64,000 nt of DNA from Candidatus Doudnabacteria bacterium. GTDB lineage: Bacteria > Patescibacteriota > Doudnabacteria > UBA920. The notes under the pieces are model-generated. The model was not told the origin of the DNA, searched no databases, and was given only the letters and a program-made list of their open reading frames with translations. Made by a program: the position numbers and the translations under genes. This document shows positions 6,190 through 46,098 of the stretch, piece after piece; within the stretch, counting starts at the first letter, position 1, and each line of letters starts with the position of its first letter. The stretch covers positions 73,387 through 137,386 of the forward strand of contig JAEUSF010000002.1 in assembly GCA_016788665.1 (NCBI GenBank), given 5' to 3'.

Positions 6190-7437
6190 TTAGTCGTTGA
6201 ATTTTCTTCCAAACTTTCTGGCAGTTACAAACGAACCGGCCAAAACACCTAAATAGGCTAAAGCGGAAACAGGTCCCGTAACTGGCAAAGAGGTTGCCGC
6301 ACCTTTTACTTCGCCCACAGGCATGGGAACAGGGAGGGAATTTAGGTTTGCTGGCATACTAGTGCTTACGCCCGCAACCTGACCTGAGCTAGAACCACCA
6401 GAACCACCCGAAGGCGGAGTTGGCACTCCACTACCTCCAGAAGAAGGGGCAGGGCCACCGCCGCTTCCACCACCCGAACCGCCGCCGCCACTACCGCCGC
6501 CGGAAGGAGGAGTCAGACTGAAGTGCGCATTAGCTACTAAATTACCGGTTATAACAAAAGTACAGATAGGATTATTGCTGCCTATGCATGGACCGGAAGT
6601 CCAGGTGTCAGCAAAAGTTGAACCCGAGTCAGGAGTTGCGGTTAAAGTAACCTCTGTACCAGAAACATAAGTTTGAGAACAATCCTCGCCGCAGTTTATG
6701 CCTTCATCTGAACTATTAACAGTACCGGTACCGTCACCATTTTTAGTAACAGTTAAAGTATATTCCGGATTTTCCAAGTCATCTACAGTTACAGTACAAG
6801 TTTTTTCCTCACCGTTGGAAACTGTGGAATTACAGTCAGCAGAATATGAGTAAGCATAGCCTCCGTCTGAAACCAAAGTCACACCATAAGCACCAGAGTT
6901 TATATTGCTAGTCACCCCTGCTTCGGAACCGACAAAAGTTGTTAAAACTGGAGAGGTAGCGGTCAAATTTACAGTAAAATCTGGAGCTGCTTTAGTGCCA
7001 CTATTGTCATTGGTCACATTAACCACCACTTTAACTTTTCCAGGCTTTGAAGTGTTTGTAATAGTACAGGTAACGTCGTCACCAGAAGCCAAAGTTCCGC
7101 TGCAACCGCTATAACTTGCTTGGTATGCCGGCTCTTCGGTTTCGGTAATGTTAAAGCTACCTTCAATAGGGGTTAAAACTGTACCGGTTTCTTCACCAGG
7201 AAAGGTTTGCAAAAATATAGGCACGCCTGGCAAAGGAGGAATAACTACTGCGGTAATACTAAAGTTACCCGCAGTTTTACTGCCACCATTGTCATTTATA
7301 ACGTGCTTAATAACGGTAATCGTACCGTTTCCCAGAAGAGGAGCGTCGTCGGCTTTTACATGGCTAAAGTAAGCAATTTGAGAAATAATTGCTACCGAAA
7401 CAAACGTCTTGTATAAAAAAGATTTATATAAATTCAT
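6190..7437 (-). CDS. LPXTG-anchored surface protein with repeated Cna-B/prealbumin-like domains and a Gly/Ser-rich stalk
   Basis: Signal peptide at the N-terminus. Repeated T-C-T-(I/V)-T modules and a (GGS)n linker are present. The C-terminus LPVTG plus hydrophobic segment plus RKFGRKF is a classic sortase sorting signal. Confidence 0.7.
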   Translation of the reverse strand: MNLYKSFLYKTFVSVAIISQIAYFSHVKADDAPLLGNGTITVIKHVINDNGGSKTAGNFSITAVVIPPLPGVPIFLQTFPGEETGTVLTPIEGSFNITETEEPAYQASYSGCSGTLASGDDVTCTITNTSKPGKVKVVVNVTNDNSGTKAAPDFTVNLTATSPVLTTFVGSEAGVTSNINSGAYGVTLVSDGGYAYSYSADCNSTVSNGEEKTCTVTVDDLENPEYTLTVTKNGDGTGTVNSSDEGINCGEDCSQTYVSGTEVTLTATPDSGSTFADTWTSGPCIGSNNPICTFVITGNLVANAHFSLTPPSGGGSGGGGSGGGSGGGPAPSSGGSGVPTPPSGGSGGSSSGQVAGVSTSMPANLNSLPVPMPVGEVKGAATSLPVTGPVSALAYLGVLAGSFVTARKFGRKFND

Positions 7438-7500
7438 ATTGTTTATGCAAATAATTTTTTAAGTTTTTTATTTTCCCAATTATAACATATATTTAACATC

Positions 7501-7529
7501 TTGACAAGACCCCTTAAAATAGGTATAAT
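7501..7529 (+). promoter_or_regulatory. Perfect sigma70 consensus promoter TTGACA-17-TATAAT, followed by AGGAGG RBS at 7549-7554
   Basis: TTGACA at 7501-7506, a 17-nt spacer and TATAAT at 7524-7529. AGGAGG lies 8 nt before the ATG at 7563. Confidence 0.6.
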
Positions 7530-24173: not shown

Positions 24174-26009
24174 ATGATAAAGAAACAAATGCCTAAGCGC
24201 TTTGGGCCAACAAAGCCAATGCAGCATATTCCTAAAGACGACGGGGTCAACAAAACCGACCCAAATCGTTTAGATATGCTCATACAAAAAGCCACTAGCC
24301 TGGCTTCCAATTTAACCACCAGTAGACACACTTCGAGCAGGCAGAATTTAAGAGTCATCCCCATGGGAGGCGTAGAAGAAGTTGGTGAAAATATGACCGC
24401 CTTTGAATTTGGCGACGATATTATAGTCATAGACATGGGTCTAGCTTTTCCGGACGACACTATGCCTGGAATAGACTATATTATTCCCGACACCAAATGG
24501 CTGGAAGAAAACAAAAAGCGCATACGTGGAGTAATAATCACCCATGGACACTTGGACCACATTGGCGCAGTCCCATACATTTTACCCAAACTCGGTGATC
24601 CGCCAGTCTACACCATGGCTCTAACTGCAGGTTTTATAAAAAAACGCCTAGAAGAGTTTGGTCTTTTAGGTCGCAGCAAAATAAACGTTTTAAATAAAGA
24701 CGACGTTTTAGCACTAGGAAGTTTCAAAATTAGATTCTTCCGACTTAACCACAGCATTCCGGACAGCATGGGACTTTCTATAACAAGTCCAGTCGGACAA
24801 ATTATTTACGCAACTGACTGGAAATTCGACCACACTCCGGCAGATGGAAAGCCAACAGAATTCGACAAAATTGCCCGCTTTGGAGCTGAAGGGGTCTTAC
24901 TATTAATGTCTGACTCTACCAATGCTGTTAAACCAGGTTACTGTGCCTCCGAAAGAGAAATAGGATTAACCATCGAACGAACCTTTGGCGATATAAAAGG
25001 AAGAATTATTTTTGCCAACTTCTCCACTAACATATCGCGTATACAGCAAGTTTTCGATGCAGCCGCCAAATTCAATAGAAAGGTAATTGTCACGGGACGC
25101 TCCTTAGTTAACAACATTGAAATAGCACTCTCTTTAGGCTATTTGAAAATTCAACCTAAAATAATTGTTAAGTCTGAAGCAGCCAAAAAATATCCAGATA
25201 ACCAAATTGTTATTTTAACAACCGGAGCACAAGGCGAAGAAGCGGCCGGACTTGCCCGTATTGCCAGAGGTGACCATAAAACGGTCAAAATAAAAAAAGG
25301 TGACACTACTATAGTTTCAGCGTCCCCCATCCCTGGCAACGAAAGAGCTATTTCCGCCATGCTGTCAAACCTTACCCGACTAGGCTCGCACGTTATTTAC
25401 AACAAAACACTGGACATACACACATCCGGACACGCCCACCAGGAAGAGCTTAAGCTCATGATGGCTTTAACCAAACCAAAGTATTTTATGCCTATACACG
25501 GCGAGCATCACATGATAGTTGCCCACGCTGAACTGGCAAAAACCATGGGCATGCCACCAGAAAATATTTTTACCCTGGACAATGGTCAAATTTTGGAAGT
25601 TGGCAGCGACAAAATTGCCAAGGTTACAACCGATGACAAAATTTCCAGTGGTTATGTATTTATTGATGGTCTTGGAGTTGGAGATGTTGGAGAAGTAGTC
25701 ATACGCGACAGACAAGTTATGGCCCAAGACGGCATGTTTGTCATAATAATTACTTTAAACCGCAGAGACGGGAAACTTATAAACCAACCTGACATTATTT
25801 CCCGCGGCTTTATTTACATGAAAGGTAACGACGACCTTATAAGAGAAGTAAAGCATGAGGTTAGAAAGCTGGTAGAAACTAAGGGTAAAGAAAAACTTGA
25901 ACCAAACTGGGCATACTTAAGAAATGTAATTCGCGACGAAGTCGGCGAATATCTGTATCAAAAAACCGAAAGACGTCCCATGGTCTTACCGGTCATAATC
26001 GAAATTTAA
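24174..26009 (+). CDS. rnj: Ribonuclease J (metallo-beta-lactamase/beta-CASP) with an N-terminal basic extension of about 60 aa
   Basis: RNase J-type opening RVIPMGGVEEVGENM, motif ITHGHLDHIG, and beta-CASP plus C-terminal domain. Confidence 0.9.
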   Translation: MIKKQMPKRFGPTKPMQHIPKDDGVNKTDPNRLDMLIQKATSLASNLTTSRHTSSRQNLRVIPMGGVEEVGENMTAFEFGDDIIVIDMGLAFPDDTMPGIDYIIPDTKWLEENKKRIRGVIITHGHLDHIGAVPYILPKLGDPPVYTMALTAGFIKKRLEEFGLLGRSKINVLNKDDVLALGSFKIRFFRLNHSIPDSMGLSITSPVGQIIYATDWKFDHTPADGKPTEFDKIARFGAEGVLLLMSDSTNAVKPGYCASEREIGLTIERTFGDIKGRIIFANFSTNISRIQQVFDAAAKFNRKVIVTGRSLVNNIEIALSLGYLKIQPKIIVKSEAAKKYPDNQIVILTTGAQGEEAAGLARIARGDHKTVKIKKGDTTIVSASPIPGNERAISAMLSNLTRLGSHVIYNKTLDIHTSGHAHQEELKLMMALTKPKYFMPIHGEHHMIVAHAELAKTMGMPPENIFTLDNGQILEVGSDKIAKVTTDDKISSGYVFIDGLGVGDVGEVVIRDRQVMAQDGMFVIIITLNRRDGKLINQPDIISRGFIYMKGNDDLIREVKHEVRKLVETKGKEKLEPNWAYLRNVIRDEVGEYLYQKTERRPMVLPVIIEI

Positions 26010-26012
26010 AAA

Positions 26013-26749
26013 GATGGGAGTCTTCTGGAAGACTCCCATCTTTTTTATTCGTCAATTAACAATTTTTCTAAATCTTTTCGCTCCCTGATTCTCTCGTAAC
26101 TATTTTCTACAAAACTTTCATAGCCATCGCTCGATTGCATATCTAAGATAAACTTTTTTTCACATAAAGTACCATTCCGCACACCCAAATAATCTAAATA
26201 GCTGCTCCATTGATACTTTTTAAGGCTCTCAACAATGCCTGAAACTTTTGGGTTCTGGTGTATATAAGCCGAAAGCCAAGCTAATTGGGAATCATTTTTT
26301 ATCAGCACTGACTTGAAAGCATCTTGGAAAAGATGCCCCACTCTACCATACTTCTTGTTAAAATATTTACTATAGCTGGTACAAATTTTAGAAACTAACT
26401 TACTTATTTCTGTATCTCCGTTTTGTCGGATTAATAAATGAAAATGGTTTGGCATTAAGCAATAACACAATAGTGTAAAAGCATCTGCTGGCAAACTTTT
26501 TCTTATATAGGAACCTCCAAGGTTTTTTTCGGCAAACGGCATGTTTTTTAAGGGAAATAAATTTTCTTTTAACCTGTAAAGAAAAAACTTAAAGTCATCT
26601 TCATCTTTAAAAATATCCATTTTCCCTACGCCACGGTTAAAAACATGATAACAAGCTTTAGGCGCAAAGTTTTTATAATCCCTATTGTTCATAGCCTACT
26701 GCTTATGCTTTAAACAAGTTTTGATGGGAGTCTTCTGGAAGACTCCCAT
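26013..26749. mobile_element. IS200/IS605-family minimal element (or RAYT/REP-like unit): Y1 HUH transposase flanked by identical 28-nt hairpins
   Basis: GATGGGAGTCTTCTGGAAGACTCCCATC occurs at 26013-26040 and again at 26722-26749 in the same orientation. The two copies flank only the tnpA gene, for a total of about 737 bp. Confidence 0.7.
26045..26692 (-). CDS. tnpA: IS200/IS605-family Y1 (HUH) transposase TnpA / REP-associated tyrosine transposase
   Basis: CYHVFNRG near the N-terminus, HUH motif LMPNHFHLL, and catalytic Tyr-containing helix (SYSKYFNKKY). Confidence 0.8.
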   Translation of the reverse strand: MNNRDYKNFAPKACYHVFNRGVGKMDIFKDEDDFKFFLYRLKENLFPLKNMPFAEKNLGGSYIRKSLPADAFTLLCYCLMPNHFHLLIRQNGDTEISKLVSKICTSYSKYFNKKYGRVGHLFQDAFKSVLIKNDSQLAWLSAYIHQNPKVSGIVESLKKYQWSSYLDYLGVRNGTLCEKKFILDMQSSDGYESFVENSYERIRERKDLEKLLIDE

Positions 26750-26774
26750 CATTCCAATATGCTATAATTGTAAC

Positions 26775-27752
26775 ATGAATAAACAAACCGTGGTCGGTGG
26801 TATTAGGCCCACCAACAAACTTCATATTGGCAACTACCTGGGCGCTTTAAAACAGTTTGTAGCTATAAGCAACGACAATCAAATTACCTCTTATTTCTTT
26901 ATTGTTGACCTGCATTCCTTAACCACTCCATTTGAACCAAAAGAACTTAAGACAAACATACTGGATGCTGCGGCCACTTACTTAGCCGCTGGTTTTAACC
27001 CAAAAAATTCCAATCTGTTCATCCAAAGTCATATACCAGAGCATGCTGAATTGGCCTGGATATTTAACTGCATAACTCCTTTAGGCGAACTGGAACGTAT
27101 GACCCAGTTTAAAGAAAAATCCCAACAACACGCAACCAATATTAACGCCGGGCTCTTAAGTTATCCGGTTTTAATGGCAGCCGATATTTTAATATATAAA
27201 CCAAACGGTGTATCGGTAGGAGAAGATCAGGTGCAACACGTTGAGCTGTCACGGGTGATTGCAAGAAAATTCAATAACAAATTTGGCAATACTTTTCCAG
27301 AACCCCAAACTTACATAAGAAAGCCATTGCGTATAATGTCACTCACGGATCCGACTAAAAAAATGAGCAAAACTGGCGACGAAGCCCTAAATATGGACGA
27401 CGAACCAAAAGAAATAGCAAGAAAGCTTAAAAAGGCCGTCACCGCATCAGAACCAGGAAAAAAATCTCCCGGTGAAGAAAACTTAATGTTTTTACTTAAC
27501 CACTTTGGTTCCGAAGAATCGGTACGACACTTTACCGAAGCACAAAACAGTGGCAAACTAAAATATTTTGAGCTCAAAGAAACCTTAGCTCAAAATATTT
27601 CCGACTACTTTGCGGAATTTCGAGAAAAGAAAAAAGAACTACTTTCCAAACCAGATTACTTGGCCCAAGTTTTAGGTGACGGTGCAAGAAAAGCAAGGGA
27701 AACTGCTCACAAAACAATCACCGAAGTCAAACAAAAAATCGGACTCCTATAA
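26775..27752 (+). CDS. trpS: Tryptophan--tRNA ligase (likely start is the ATG at 26775; the ORF is open from 26685)
   Basis: Class I aaRS HIGH-type motif (KLHIGNYLGAL) and KMSKT motif. About 325 aa. TATAAT lies 5 nt upstream of the ATG, leaderless-like. Confidence 0.9.
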   Translation: MNKQTVVGGIRPTNKLHIGNYLGALKQFVAISNDNQITSYFFIVDLHSLTTPFEPKELKTNILDAAATYLAAGFNPKNSNLFIQSHIPEHAELAWIFNCITPLGELERMTQFKEKSQQHATNINAGLLSYPVLMAADILIYKPNGVSVGEDQVQHVELSRVIARKFNNKFGNTFPEPQTYIRKPLRIMSLTDPTKKMSKTGDEALNMDDEPKEIARKLKKAVTASEPGKKSPGEENLMFLLNHFGSEESVRHFTEAQNSGKLKYFELKETLAQNISDYFAEFREKKKELLSKPDYLAQVLGDGARKARETAHKTITEVKQKIGLL

Positions 27753-27772
27753 TTTTATAGCGGTCCGATTTT

Positions 27773-28162
27773 TTGTTTGAAAAAGTCACAGGAGGATGCT
27801 CCATGTTTACTTGCGTTCTGTGGTTTTCCAAGTTTGTGGAAGTTTCAAGGCACTTCGATAAACTCGTAGCACAAGGCAACTGGGAAGGCATAACTATGCA
27901 TACCCCAAACCAAATGTGGCAACCTCAACAAGTTGGCCGCATGATGCTTATACCGGTTAAGCGAGACATTTTGCCAAAAAACTTCAATGCACGCCAGCAA
28001 CTTCCGATTTTAAAAATCTCTTTTTCTGACCAGTCACCTGTCGCAATAATTAATACGCTGCGCCACTTTGGCGCAATCCGTATCAGCGACACAGGGGTCA
28101 TAATCGACGAAGAATGGCTGGCTAAACTTGTAGGCACCATTGCGCCAAAAGCCGCAGCCTAA
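27773..28162 (+). CDS. Hypothetical protein (probable start ATG at 27803 after AGGAGGA RBS)
   Basis: 119-129 aa with no recognisable motifs. RBS AGGAGGA 7 nt upstream of the ATG. It begins immediately after the trpS terminator hairpin (27736-27772). Confidence 0.35.
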   Translation: MFEKVTGGCSMFTCVLWFSKFVEVSRHFDKLVAQGNWEGITMHTPNQMWQPQQVGRMMLIPVKRDILPKNFNARQQLPILKISFSDQSPVAIINTLRHFGAIRISDTGVIIDEEWLAKLVGTIAPKAAA

Positions 28163-43614: not shown

Positions 43615-43812
43615 ATGAACGGTGTTGTAAAAAAGAAAATGGACAAAGGCTTCGGCTTTATAACCATTGAAGGACAAAATCAAGATTTGTTCTTTCACAG
43701 CAACTCTTTGGTTGATATAACCTTCGAAGAGCTAAACGTAGGCGATGCAGTTTCCTTTGAAATAGAAGATTCCCCAAAAGGAAAAAATGCAGTCAGCGTA
43801 AGAAAAGTTTAA
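43615..43812 (+). CDS. cspA: Cold-shock protein, CspA family
   Basis: KGFGFI RNP1-like motif, 65 aa. The long AT-rich 5' UTR is typical of csp genes. Confidence 0.9.
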   Translation: MNGVVKKKMDKGFGFITIEGQNQDLFFHSNSLVDITFEELNVGDAVSFEIEDSPKGKNAVSVRKV

Positions 43813-43868
43813 TACTTTTTAAAAAACCTCCCTTACTTGCCTTTGGCAACAGGGAGGTTTTTTTATTC
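43779..43868 (+). repeat. Direct repeat copy A (csp 3' end plus terminator), about 90 bp
   Basis: Matches 45606-45695 with about 3 mismatches. Confidence 0.75.
43824..43868. terminator. Bidirectional intrinsic terminator, part of the duplicated segment
   Basis: CCTCCCT...AGGGAGG stem flanked by an A-run and a T-run. The identical copy lies at 45650-45695. Confidence 0.65.
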
Positions 43869-43891: not shown

Positions 43892-45526
43892 TTAATTTTT
43901 ATTCTGCTCTGCCTCAAGTCGGATACGCAGCTCATCAAATTTTTTTTCTAATTCCGAAACCTGATCATCATGTTTGTTTCTTATAAACGTACTAGTTTCG
44001 TAATACTTTTCCTCTACTAGTTTCCTCTTTTCTTTGACTTCTTCCCAACCTACTTTTCCAGACCTATATACATCGGTTATATTATCCCGCGCCTTAATCT
44101 GATCATCCTTTGCTTTTTGGGATTCTTTTATATATTCCTGTCTTATTGCCCAAAATGCCTCATTTCGATTATTCCTCAAATTAAAACTTAGGTCTCCGCC
44201 ACCGAATCTAAAAAATAAACTTCCTTGCGAACCTAACTGAACCTGTCTTGTATTTTTTTCGAACCACTCATGCTTGCTTTCTAGGGAAGTCCCGGCAGGA
44301 AAATAGGCATCATCGCTTAAACGTTTTATTAACTGCTCAAATTCATAAGCCAACCCCTGCCTGTCCACAAAGGTTATTAGGTCATTCCCATTCACTAAAG
44401 CAAAATATATGTCTATATGCTCCTTACTTCCCACCTCATTGAATTTTACCAACTTTGACCAACTAAAATCCTGAATCCCTTCGTCGGTTAAAACAATTAC
44501 CGCTCGTTGCGAACCTGCATTTTCCGGAAGCAGTTTTTTTTCCAATACTTGATCCAACGAATTAAACAGTTGTTCATTTCCACCACTTAGCCTCAAATTC
44601 GACAGCGTCTCTTCTAGCTTTTCTGAAGGAACTTTCTTATAACTATCCAAGTCAGCACCTCTTTCAAAGGTAACAACATGGTTGGTGTCTGAACTAAAGT
44701 CTGAAGGCATTTGTTTAAACGCTTCACCAAACTTTTTACCCAAACGACCATAATCGTCCGACATAGATTCGCTCCGATCCGCCAAAATGGTAATTTTGTC
44801 ATAACTGGCCATAATTTCTACCAACTTAGCGTACTGAACTTCCACTTCGTTATCTCCCGGTAATTCAAAAGCCACCCGCGCATAACGCGCTTGGTCGTAT
44901 AATCCAGACAACTGCTCCCCAGAAAGTTTTTTTATTTCTTCTGGCTTATACCTTTCTTTCGTCGCCGGATTAATTAACTGAGTAATTGGTAAAAAACCTA
45001 CTCCCCAAGAACCTGCGGCTATCCGTTTGGTATAAGTCTTACGCCGAAACTGGCGCAGTGCGGTTGGATCTATCTGAGAGGAAAACTTATATGTCTCAAT
45101 AATATTCCGAAGCAACCCGTCCAAAGCTTTAAGTCTTTCGGTACTTAAACCTTCATTTCCCTTTTCCCATTTTTTTGTTGGCCTTTCGTCACTAGAAACC
45201 TCAATGCTTATACGACTTGAATTTAGCTTTGTAAACTTTTCCTTGTTATTATATTCTTCCAAAAATTTTTCAATTTTAGTTCTAATTTCTACCTCAGCCC
45301 TCCCGTTTAATTCAGCCGCGTCGACAGGGAAGGAGTTAGCAAAATCAAAATTTTCTAAAGCTTGAGTCTTTTTTGTCTCAGCCTTTTCACCCACCAAACC
45401 AGATTTAAAGTCCGAGCAACCCGGTATTAACAAGCTAGCCCCTAAGACCACCCACCTAGCAAGCCCAAAAGCCTTTTTTTTATACTCTTCGCCTCTAAAA
45501 CCCGATTCAAAACTTCTTTCCGACAT
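43892..45526 (-). CDS. Putative lipoprotein with a von Willebrand factor A (vWA) domain
   Basis: N-terminal signal with Cys (LLIPGCSD). MIDAS motif DxSxS (ADRSESMS) and VIVLTDEG. Native-type extended -10 TGGTAATAT upstream and no SD. Flanked by the about 90-bp direct repeats. Confidence 0.6.
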   Translation of the reverse strand: MSERSFESGFRGEEYKKKAFGLARWVVLGASLLIPGCSDFKSGLVGEKAETKKTQALENFDFANSFPVDAAELNGRAEVEIRTKIEKFLEEYNNKEKFTKLNSSRISIEVSSDERPTKKWEKGNEGLSTERLKALDGLLRNIIETYKFSSQIDPTALRQFRRKTYTKRIAAGSWGVGFLPITQLINPATKERYKPEEIKKLSGEQLSGLYDQARYARVAFELPGDNEVEVQYAKLVEIMASYDKITILADRSESMSDDYGRLGKKFGEAFKQMPSDFSSDTNHVVTFERGADLDSYKKVPSEKLEETLSNLRLSGGNEQLFNSLDQVLEKKLLPENAGSQRAVIVLTDEGIQDFSWSKLVKFNEVGSKEHIDIYFALVNGNDLITFVDRQGLAYEFEQLIKRLSDDAYFPAGTSLESKHEWFEKNTRQVQLGSQGSLFFRFGGGDLSFNLRNNRNEAFWAIRQEYIKESQKAKDDQIKARDNITDVYRSGKVGWEEVKEKRKLVEEKYYETSTFIRNKHDDQVSELEKKFDELRIRLEAEQNKN

Positions 45527-45605: not shown

Positions 45606-45695
45606 CAAAAGGAAAAAACGCAGTCAACCTAAGAAAAGTTTAATACTTTTTAAAAAACCTCCCTTACTTGCCTTTGGCAACAGGGAGGTTTTTTT
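45606..45695 (+). repeat. Direct repeat copy B: duplicated csp 3' coding fragment plus terminator, about 90 bp
   Basis: Matches 43779-43868. It retains the last 8 csp codons (KGKNAVNLRKV versus KGKNAVSVRKV) and the terminator hairpin. Confidence 0.75.
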
Positions 45696-46098
45696 ATTAC
45701 TACGCAGCTTGGTTTTCCGCAGGGGCGGCAACTGGCGCTGTCTGGGTTTCCGGAGCCGGGCTAACTGGTTCCGTAGTGGTAGCATCTGTCTTTTGTTCGT
45801 CTGACATAACTGTATTCCTTTCGTATCCCGCTTCGGCAGACCCGAAGTTAACAGGACTACCTTATCTGAGCGAGACCATATTAGGGTAAATTGGCCCAGT
45901 AAGATATTTAGCCAGTGACTCATTATAACACTAACCAGCAAGAATAGATAGCTAGGAAACTACTGAAAACTGTCCTCCCCATTTACAAAAAATTTTCTCA
46001 TAAAAGTTCATTAATAGTTTTTGTAACTAGGATATTATATTGACACAATTAGTTAGGTACCTTACTATTATATATAAATCTAATTCATACGAACTCGT

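Follow-up and report, generated by a model that had tools for sequence, protein, structure and literature searches.

Is the small gene annotated as a transposase between the genes for RNase J (rnj) and tryptophanyl-tRNA synthetase (trpS) of a Candidatus Doudnabacteria bacterium part of a mobile insertion sequence (IS), or does it represent another kind of hairpin-associated system? The gene is located in a 64-kb stretch of contig JAEUSF010000002.1, which is referred to here as the window, and it encodes a Y1 HUH endonuclease/transposase-like protein. Patescibacteria have tiny genomes poor in mobile elements, and this 'transposase' is among the commonest such annotations in them. A previous reading of the DNA, which was made from the letters alone (the sequence-only reading), had interpreted the locus as a minimal IS200-like element with identical hairpins on both sides. 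The analysis described here points to another answer. The locus is probably a minimal 'REPtron-like' unit, in which a single-copy, long-resident class-2 Y1 HUH gene lies between two cognate palindromes. REPtrons are tnpA-REP/RAYT (REP-associated tyrosine transposase) genes flanked by cognate repetitive extragenic palindromes (REPs), of the E. coli yafM type, subclass 2.2 (Ton-Hoang 2012, Messing 2012, Corneloup 2021, PMC8266576).

The Y1 gene is bordered by the 28-nt palindrome GATGGGAGTCTTCTGGAAGACTCCCATC, which has exactly two exact copies in the window (Table 1). Both copies share the loop orientation and hence form a direct repeat. This arrangement around a gene for 215 aa had already been noticed in the sequence-only reading and is confirmed here; the span given for it, 26013-26749, is correct at its start and one base short at its end, which lies at 26750. 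In 100 shuffles the chance expectation for the palindrome is zero copies. A search of the 64 kb that tolerated as many as 7 mismatches gave no third copy, and additional occurrences of the 13-nt arms or half-sites did not exceed chance there. The repeat is confined to the 28-mer; the sequence diverges right at the palindrome edges, and shared or guide-like flanks are absent. The palindrome is perfect, has no bulge and carries the feet GATG at its start and CATC at its end. A scan of 185,579 species genomes, among which the source genome is absent, gave 7 matches to the hairpin core in unrelated phyla, which is about chance level.

The positions of the two copies relative to the neighboring genes are as follows. 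The left copy begins 3 nt past the rnj stop codon and stops 4 nt short of the stop codon of the Y1 gene. The right copy is located 30 nt upstream of the Y1 ATG, and 24 nt lie between its end and the trpS ATG; the sequence-only reading had given 3 and about 25 nt for the distances to rnj and trpS. RNA folding of the left copy together with A26008-12 and T26041-46 produced a 17-bp stem followed by a U-run on both strands, with -26.9/-26.8 kcal/mol and a z of about -7 on both strands; the DNA fold of this copy amounts to -15.8 kcal/mol. As predicted from this fold, the left hairpin is likely to act as an intrinsic terminator in both directions, ending transcription of rnj as well as of the Y1 gene, a role which the sequence-only reading had assigned to it and which remains plausible. 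It is presumably also one of the two recognition sites of the Y1 protein. The right copy forms a 13-bp stem of -21.3 kcal/mol with a U-run on neither strand, and because of this the terminator reading covers the left copy only. A consensus promoter/terminator scan of 25800-27000 identified only the right copy (minus strand) and one intragenic promoter-like site. The search of Rfam with 25900-26900 detected no known RNA family, T-box or other leader, just generic hairpin matches far under threshold.

The Y1 protein matches the Pfam family Y1_Tnp with 45.4 bits (cut-off 23), in agreement with the family expected from the sequence alone. It is 100% identical to a 'transposase' from a metagenome-assembled genome of a Candidatus Doudnabacteria (Patescibacteria, or candidate phyla radiation, CPR). 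More than 3,400 homologues were found among 5.8 billion proteins, with the nearest non-self homologues only 63-65% identical. There is no second Y1 gene in the 64 kb, which means that the gene is single-copy there. The HFHLL noticed previously is part of the HUH motif context MPNHFHLL. In an alignment of 45 homologues Y143, H145, N147 and P148 are invariant, and the motifs LFQ and WSSY are also present.

These motifs allow an assignment of the protein within the Y1 superfamily. Class 2, the TnpA-REP/RAYT type, has the signature Y---NP and a low copy number (Quentin et al. 2018, PMC6006769). Since NHFH and YIHQNP (Y---NP) fit the published definition, the Y1 protein belongs in class 2. IS200-type proteins (subclass 1.1) have DH[VI]H and Y[IV]ENQ (Y---Q), a length of ~150 aa and many 99%-identical copies with a mean of 4.8 per genome (PMC6006769). 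The window offers neither the IS200 motifs, nor the core-only size, nor the high copy number, and the label 'minimal IS200-like element' had to be given up. The accompanying suggestion of a closer affinity to RAYTs than to IS200 is supported by motifs, hidden Markov models (HMMs) and fold. In NCBIfam all 45 aligned homologues match REP_Tyr_transpos alone, under its equivalog cut-off, and none of them matched an IS200 transposase model.

The same picture emerges from structure prediction. The AlphaFold2 model of the Y1 protein has a predicted local distance difference test score (pLDDT) of 87 and includes a ~65-aa helical C-terminal extension. A variable loop of ~25 aa differs in length in the alignment and has low pLDDT at residues 51-60. 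The top Foldseek match of the model is 4ER8, i.e. the structure of E. coli TnpA-REP in complex with a REP hairpin (E 2.7e-6, TM 0.70); the TnpA proteins of ISDra2, IS200 and IS608 rank behind it with E values of 1e-4 to 1e-3. When the family profile was compared with the PDB, 4ER8 was the sole Y1 structure, aligned over the YIxxNP...W-SS region. Matches to TRPM8 structures from a single-sequence search of the PDB were dismissed as spurious; family profile and fold search were required here. At the level of subclasses, which were compared by motifs, the set NHFH, FQ, YIHQNP and SS tail fits no single published subclass and mixes features of 2.1 and 2.6. We file the gene as a class-2 TnpA-Y1 in a REPtron-like arrangement, a variant between IS200-type elements and classical REPtrons. 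CPR genomes are not mentioned in PMC6006769, where the term 'Parcubacteria' has 0 mentions, and our literature search found no paper describing this Y1 clade in CPR bacteria; one 2026 preprint just lists a K07491 match in an archaeon.

The relation between gene and hairpins was analyzed in 80 homologue loci (labeled L), which were kept from 566 confirmed relatives obtained in three look-ups and a metagenome scan. The loci from the metagenome scan were chosen by two conserved peptides, and the sampling of the clade is therefore uneven. For the 71 loci having both flanks, 120 nt upstream of the gene were compared with 120 nt downstream. A locus was counted if it scored above the 99th percentile of a control in which the upstream flank was paired with the downstream flank of another locus. 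Among these Patescibacteria homologues a shared segment above threshold was present in 52 of the 71 loci in direct comparison, and in 58 (82%) including inverted matches; the pair is direct in 34 of the 58 and inverted in 24. The shared segments are GC-rich palindromes, which are different in each lineage. Usually 10-50 nt separate the upstream copy from the start codon, and the downstream copy follows the stop codon at a distance of 0-25 nt.

The same comparison was made for 317 other genes of these loci. Although 27 of them were over the score threshold, nearly all of these were AT-rich low-complexity cases; only ~5 of the 317 (about 1-2%) had real GC-rich palindromes, and 2 of these were around further Y1_Tnp paralogues with hairpins of their own. 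A few exceptions aside, the control rejects the idea that bracketing by hairpins is a general property of genes. The difference between the Y1 loci and this control indicates that bracketing of the Y1 gene by hairpins is conserved as a trait of a very large clade of Patescibacteria; in the literature such a layout goes by the name REPtron-like.

Some relatives have more than one Y1 gene or a variant of the architecture. In some genomes two Y1_Tnp paralogues occur within 10 kb of each other, and each has a distinct flanking palindrome; examples are L021 7605-8243 (minus) and L027 13486-14136 (minus). On the contig of P0165, Y1 genes occur on both sides of rnj. In one relative a Y1 gene directly follows rnj on the opposite strand. 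In the subclade of L020, L021, L022, L024 and L025 (N-terminus MKNRDYK...NRGNNKEKIFFD) a strong hairpin, TGTCAAAG...CTTTGACA, precedes the gene without a matching downstream copy; it is a one-hairpin variant of the architecture. The stems of L011, L015, L017, L018, L030, L058, L065, L071, L072 and L078, among others, share the theme ...CAA(A)GG-loop-CC(T)TTG..., which is frequently combined with a (C)TAC/GTA(G) foot; the arms in the window, GATGGGAGTCTTC, deviate from this theme. Double feet of the type CTAC...GTAG are present in L011, L013, L054, L070 and L072.

Next to this general association, the hairpins of the subclade of the window show covariation. The 13-nt arms are identical in L097, where the Y1 protein is 63% identical and the genomic context is another one; they differ by 1 compensatory pair in L098 and by 2 in L091. 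When eight hairpin copies were aligned, 97.4% of the cells were paired and 4 of the 18 stem pairs had changed on both sides, compared with 0-1 in slid controls. These paired changes indicate that the stem is under selection in this subclade. Furthermore, the two copies inside each subclade genome are identical or nearly so, in spite of the fact that synonymous sites between the genomes are saturated. This amounts to concerted evolution of the copies, as is expected if one protein specificity reads both. In the locus L013 the 11-nt arm sequences are the same but have changed places, and the feet are CTAC/GTAG. Because of this swap the 28-mer looks as if it was derived from an inverted dimer by deletion of the centre; such a route has been put forward for 'double-foot' REPs by Quentin et al. 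(PMC6006769).

Copies of the palindromes outside the immediate flanks were also found in relatives. When the hairpin core of each locus was used as a query against that locus, extra distant copies came up in 12 of 57 loci; this corresponds to 24 copies in 574 kb, compared with 0.25 for a null of shuffled cores. Exact extra copies several kb off occur, e.g., in L041, L065 and L028. Hence there is modest REP-like dispersal in some related genomes, with none within ~10 kb in most loci. In addition, 24 of the 57 non-redundant loci have an in-frame hairpin within an intact Y1 coding sequence. These internal copies sit in two places: 14 loci have one 21-32 residues before the HUH motif in the hypervariable low-confidence loop (port 1), 13 have one 4-11 residues after Y---NP (port 2), and in 4 loci both ports are occupied. 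An internal copy between HUH and Y occurs in none of the 57 loci, in contrast to subclass 2.4 as published. The sequence of the internal copies follows that of the flanking ones. One example is L041 with six exact copies of one 23-nt palindrome, of which 2 are flanking, 2 internal and 2 distant. The Y1 gene of the window has no internal hairpin copy, while L097 and L098, to which it is most closely related, have a diverged one in port 1.

The history of the locus was examined at the rnj-trpS junctions of relatives, which were obtained via RNase J proteins with 86-91% identity. The comparison revealed that an empty site exists. In L093 the gap between rnj and trpS is 57 nt long and contains nothing but the promoter element TGtTATACT and an ordinary terminator, which consists of ACTCCCCttttGGGGAGT and a T-run. 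An orthologous Y1 gene is present at rnj-trpS in L091, on the same strand and with homologous hairpins. In L092 and L096 the place of Y1 is taken by a PaaX_M/Cas2-like gene (~165-174 aa), with a separate rnj terminator kept; this gene is bracketed by a 42-nt direct repeat that contains the palindrome AACGCACGGCCGTGCGTT. In L094 and L095 trpS is not nearby. Because the site is empty, occupied by Y1 or otherwise occupied in relatives, the unit was gained or lost as a block. An excision from just past the left hairpin through the right hairpin would give a spacer of 55 nt, and L093 has 57 nt.

The sequence-only reading had also considered that the insertion replaced the native rnj terminator or the trpS promoter. 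As for the promoter, the putative core element TGcTATAAT of trpS is intact; it follows the right hairpin and is not part of the hairpin-bounded unit. The hairpin is found where the empty site has its ordinary terminator. That terminator in L093 (6756-6781, AAAAACTCCCCTTTTGGGGAGTTTTT) has the 6-mers ACTCCC and GGGAGT in common with the arms of the Y1 hairpin, in a layout like the L013 hairpin. The pair ACTCCC...GGGAGT has 3 occurrences in 887 kb, 2 of which are the Y1 hairpins of L013 and 1 the L093 terminator (p roughly 1e-3). This is suggestive, but only suggestive, of a solo relic of the hairpin family in the 'empty' site.

The PaaX_M/Cas2-like genes have one further connection with the Y1 genes. 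In L097 a homologue (1930-2418; 43% over 80 aa) adjoins the Y1 gene and is outside the Y1 hairpins. The candidate explanation that the PaaX_M/Cas2-like gene is a passenger of the Y1 hairpins was rejected because they do not bracket it in L097; a link between the two gene types is possible.

The divergence of the Y1 genes gives an estimate of the age of the unit. The Y1 proteins of the window and L091, at the same site and in the same orientation, have 67.6% identity with dN 0.27, dS 2.7 and a dN/dS of ~0.1 (nonsynonymous and synonymous divergence). The adjacent TrpS has 66.2% identity and dN 0.27 for the same pair of genomes, and 66-68% with dN 0.25-0.29 among all four genomes. An early impression that Y1 evolves much faster than its neighbors (65% versus 91% for RNase J) was dropped; RNase J with a dN of 0.09 is exceptionally conserved, and TrpS is at 66%. 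By these measures the Y1 gene is under purifying selection and evolves at a rate like that of a housekeeping neighbor. The insertion or loss is ancient, because the orthologous Y1 genes are as diverged as TrpS and no near-identical copy was found. Signs of recent mobility are absent: besides the L091 orthologue, the nearest homologue among the 5.8 billion proteins is at 65%. The Y1 gene of P0023 has the same neighborhood in three samples. No Y1 relatives were found on viral contigs.

Together, these results favor the REPtron-like unit introduced above, and a mechanism can be proposed for it. When the locus is single-stranded, e.g. as lagging-strand template, each 28-mer would be extruded as a hairpin of 12-13 bp. 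The Y1 protein would bind this hairpin, and its HUH metal site (H83, H85) and Tyr143 would cut and rejoin single-stranded DNA (ssDNA) at the foot; E. coli TnpA-REP and other enzymes of its type cleave and rejoin hairpin ssDNA in vitro (PMC8266576). Repeated cutting and rejoining, or selection by one protein specificity, would hold the copies identical in a genome, while the pair could drift between genomes by compensatory change. The same chemistry may rarely lead to gain or loss of the whole hairpin-bounded segment, which would account for the polymorphism at rnj-trpS and for the other contexts. The unit entered this spacer, or left that of the relative, long ago, and its left hairpin may by now have a second role in terminating transcription from both sides, that of rnj and that of the Y1 gene.

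A number of observations weigh against this reading. [quoted passage not shown] The homologous unit is found in several contexts: at rnj-trpS in the window and L091, at Laminin_G-DUF2298 in L098 and elsewhere in L097. Gain and loss cannot be polarised because the four genomes are about equidistant. The Y1 protein reaches 58.7 bits with the NCBIfam model REP_Tyr_transpos (NF047646), under the equivalog cut-off of 80. The 64 kb of the window have no dispersed hairpin copies, so that the REP half of a RAYT/REP pair is not demonstrated; the REP-like nature of the hairpins, which had been suspected from the sequence alone, is seen as dispersal in some related genomes and not in the window. The canonical RAYT/REP(IN) label, which covers subclasses 2.2 and 2.5 (Bertels groups 2 and 3), fits only in part: a REP population and a GTAG foot were not found in the window, and the HMM score is sub-threshold. 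A tentative extension of the REPtron-like reading goes further. The genes could form an unclassified class-2 subclass, which is spread over the Patescibacteria with thousands of members and stands between the IS200 type and REPtrons. Its palindrome would be held identical at up to four gene-proximal sites, namely the two flanks and the two in-frame ports, with few or no dispersed REPs, and the main substrate of the enzyme would be its own locus. A hairpin-bounded gene, and not a population of REPINs, would then occasionally be gained, lost or replaced, and the solo terminator-like hairpin in L093 would be the footprint of a loss.

The main rival explanation is an autonomous IS of the IS200/IS605 type with low copy number and activity, in which the hairpins are the left and right subterminal ends (LE and RE) and the 738-bp unit is excised as an ssDNA circle and reinserted. 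Such an element would have the compact hairpin-gene-hairpin layout with direct hairpins, and it would explain why the site is polymorphic and empty in L093, why a homologous unit with the same arms occurs in unrelated neighborhoods, why a Y1 gene in opposite orientation comes right after rnj in another relative and why some genomes have two or more paralogues. We still consider it unlikely. The protein lacks DH[VI]H and Y---Q and has 215 aa with a C-terminal extension, its sole NCBIfam match is REP_Tyr_transpos and its best structure is TnpA-REP. No near-identical copy is found in the window or in the 5.8 billion proteins, and the copy here is as old as the TrpS divergence and under purifying selection. 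The ends are identical, not a distinct LE and RE, and their inversion in 24 of 58 loci is at odds with strand-specific LE/RE transposition. The absence of the family from viral contigs also argues against such an element.

At the other extreme, the Y1 protein could be domesticated for a host role without movement of DNA, e.g. as a regulator that binds ssDNA or RNA hairpins in a sequence-specific way and controls the expression of itself and its neighbors; the hairpins would then be an operator, terminator or insulator. The housekeeping-like rate, the single copy and the stable position are consistent with this, and so are the resemblance of the left hairpin to a bidirectional terminator and the upstream hairpin 10-50 nt before the start codon throughout the family. 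The in-frame internal hairpins of relatives could act on mRNA, and TnpA-REP is regarded as co-opted (PMC8266576). This explanation is nevertheless rather improbable, because HUH histidines and a catalytic tyrosine that are invariant in 45 homologues argue for retained cleavage chemistry, and because distant exact copies and block-wise polymorphism imply DNA transactions beyond binding. Hardly any credit is left for a coincidence, in which the 28-mers are generic terminators or insulators that were duplicated around an inserted gene and have nothing to do with the Y1 protein. It is true that the left copy is a textbook bidirectional terminator, and that a 93-nt terminator repeat around a VWA-like gene (see below) shows that duplicated modules occur in the window. 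But a U-run is missing from the right copy, the arms have stayed conserved apart from compensatory changes between genomes with saturated synonymous sites, and the same palindrome recurs within the coding sequence of relatives. The presence of matching flank palindromes in 82% of the Y1 loci versus ~1-2% of other genes, together with the covariation, effectively refutes this explanation.

The REPtron-like reading can be placed more precisely by comparison with known systems. In common with REPtrons, the window has a Y---NP Y1 HUH protein with 4ER8 as best structure, a gene bordered by presumed cognate palindromes, protein-palindrome co-evolution, a single copy, a housekeeping-like rate and vertical inheritance. 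The differences are that the window has no GT[AG]G foot, an unbulged palindrome and two copies in 64 kb compared with tens to hundreds of REPs, that its flanks are direct and not inverted, and that the unit itself is polymorphic in presence and absence and found in varied contexts. Moreover, the protein has 215 aa versus 165 aa and is under the NCBIfam equivalog cut-off. Subclass 2.4 (Bertels group 4; Cyanobacteria, Bacteroidetes and others; PMC6006769) shares NH[IFV]H, 'double-foot' palindromes and REPs in frame within tnpA, the latter with 24 of 57 related loci here; it differs in having WQ and YIxNNP, while this clade has FQ and YIHQNP and never places its internal copies between HUH and Y. 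Subclass 2.1 (Bertels group 1/TIRYT) is similar in NH[YF]H, FQ, a C-terminal tail containing SS and a length of >200 aa, but flanking hairpins are missing from it, and its distal HTH/DnaA_C domain is absent here. The Bacteroidetes subclass 2.6 shares YIH[QN]NP, the SS tail and 'atypical' flanking hairpins without GTAG in few genomic copies; it differs by WQ, NH[LIV]H and a size of ~179 aa.

The resemblance to IS200/IS605 elements (IS200, IS608, ISDra2; subclass 1.1) is in part non-discriminating, as Pfam Y1_Tnp and the HUH/Y1 fold are common to all TnpA-Y1 classes. A ~0.7-kb coding sequence between same-strand subterminal hairpins, with no terminal inverted repeats or target duplications evident, is a further likeness; the difference is that the IS has a distinct LE and RE with guide tetranucleotides, whereas the hairpins of the window are identical. 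The internal copies of the relatives recall the Rickettsia palindromic elements, which Ogata et al. reportedly described in 2000 as in-frame palindromic insertions in protein-coding genes. The palindromes of the relatives are likewise translated, and the resulting insertions, which are rich in G, A, P and R, are tolerated in surface loops; here, by difference, the host gene encodes the enzyme presumed to act on the palindrome and there are two fixed ports.

These findings have a bearing on annotation. The 'transposase' in question is best described as a single-copy, selectively maintained, hairpin-coupled gene of the RAYT type and not as an active IS, and such annotations should be reread. The clade presents the REP/RAYT problem in stripped-down form, with one gene, two to four hairpins and almost no dispersed population. 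It may ease tests of what enzymes of the TnpA-REP type do, their real role being still unresolved (PMC8266576), and may help to explain how hairpin copies stay identical. Since the left hairpin seems to have taken over the termination of an essential RNase gene, a loss or change of the unit would be expected to affect the neighboring housekeeping genes.

Table 1. Positions of the Y1 gene, its hairpins and neighboring features in the window, and of internal hairpins and alternative occupants in related loci.
Feature	Sequence	Position	Strand	Remarks
Left hairpin copy	window	26013-26040	.	downstream of Y1 gene in gene orientation; exact 28-mer
Y1 HUH endonuclease/transposase-like gene	window	26045-26692	minus	intact, 215 aa; class-2 (TnpA-REP/RAYT-type)
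YIHQNP codons, residues 143-148	window	26249-26266	minus	catalytic Tyr, class-2 signature Y---NP (PMC6006769)
NHFH (HUH) codons, residues 82-85	window	26438-26449	minus	H83, H85 invariant in 45 homologues
Hypervariable loop codons, about residues 48-61	window	26510-26551	minus	between helix A and strand before HUH; equals 'port 1' of relatives
Right hairpin copy	window	26723-26750	.	exact 28-mer; second presumed recognition site
rnj (RNase J)	window	24174-26009	plus	Pfam RNase_J_b_CASP, RNase_J_C, RMMBL, Lactamase_B; stop TAA 26007-26009
Extended -10 element TGcTATAAT	window	26760-26768	plus	read from sequence; 6 nt before trpS ATG
trpS (tryptophanyl-tRNA synthetase)	window	26775-27752	plus	Pfam tRNA-synt_1b 215 bits
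Internal hairpin copies	L041	10129-10151, 10436-10458		
Internal hairpin copies	L054	343-369, 647-673		
Internal hairpin copies	L060	3335-3357, 3643-3665		
Internal hairpin copies	L036	469-489, 763-783		
Internal hairpin copy	L097	1353-1373		diverged, first position
Internal hairpin copy	L098	4146-4167		diverged, first position
PaaX_M/Cas2-like gene	L092	6937-7461	minus	repeats 6902-6943, 7464-7505
PaaX_M/Cas2-like gene	L096	5935-6459		

Among the neighboring genes, trpS deserves a comment. Its true start is the ATG at 26775 and not the TTG at 26685, and the resulting N-terminus agrees with that of relatives. A TATAAT/TATACT box 6-7 nt before the trpS ATG is present in the window (26760-26777), L093 (6783-6800), L091 (3010-3026) and L092 (7521-7534); in the window and L093 it is preceded by TGn. 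Because this -10-like box is just 6-7 nt away from the ATG, the sequences suggest that the trpS mRNA is leaderless or near-leaderless in these Doudnabacteria-like genomes. At the trpS stop the window has a 26-nt inverted repeat (27727-27780; 92% complementary, 2-nt gap), which is probably the trpS terminator and whose sequence is unlike the Y1 hairpin.

A second pair of repeats in the window is located away from the Y1 gene. A 93-nt direct repeat with 97% identity (43775-43867 and 45606-45698) is found around a 544-aa VWA-like gene (43892-45526, minus). The repeat includes a TTGACT -35-like element as well as a GC-rich terminator hairpin that has runs of A and T, and it looks like a duplicated terminator-promoter module.

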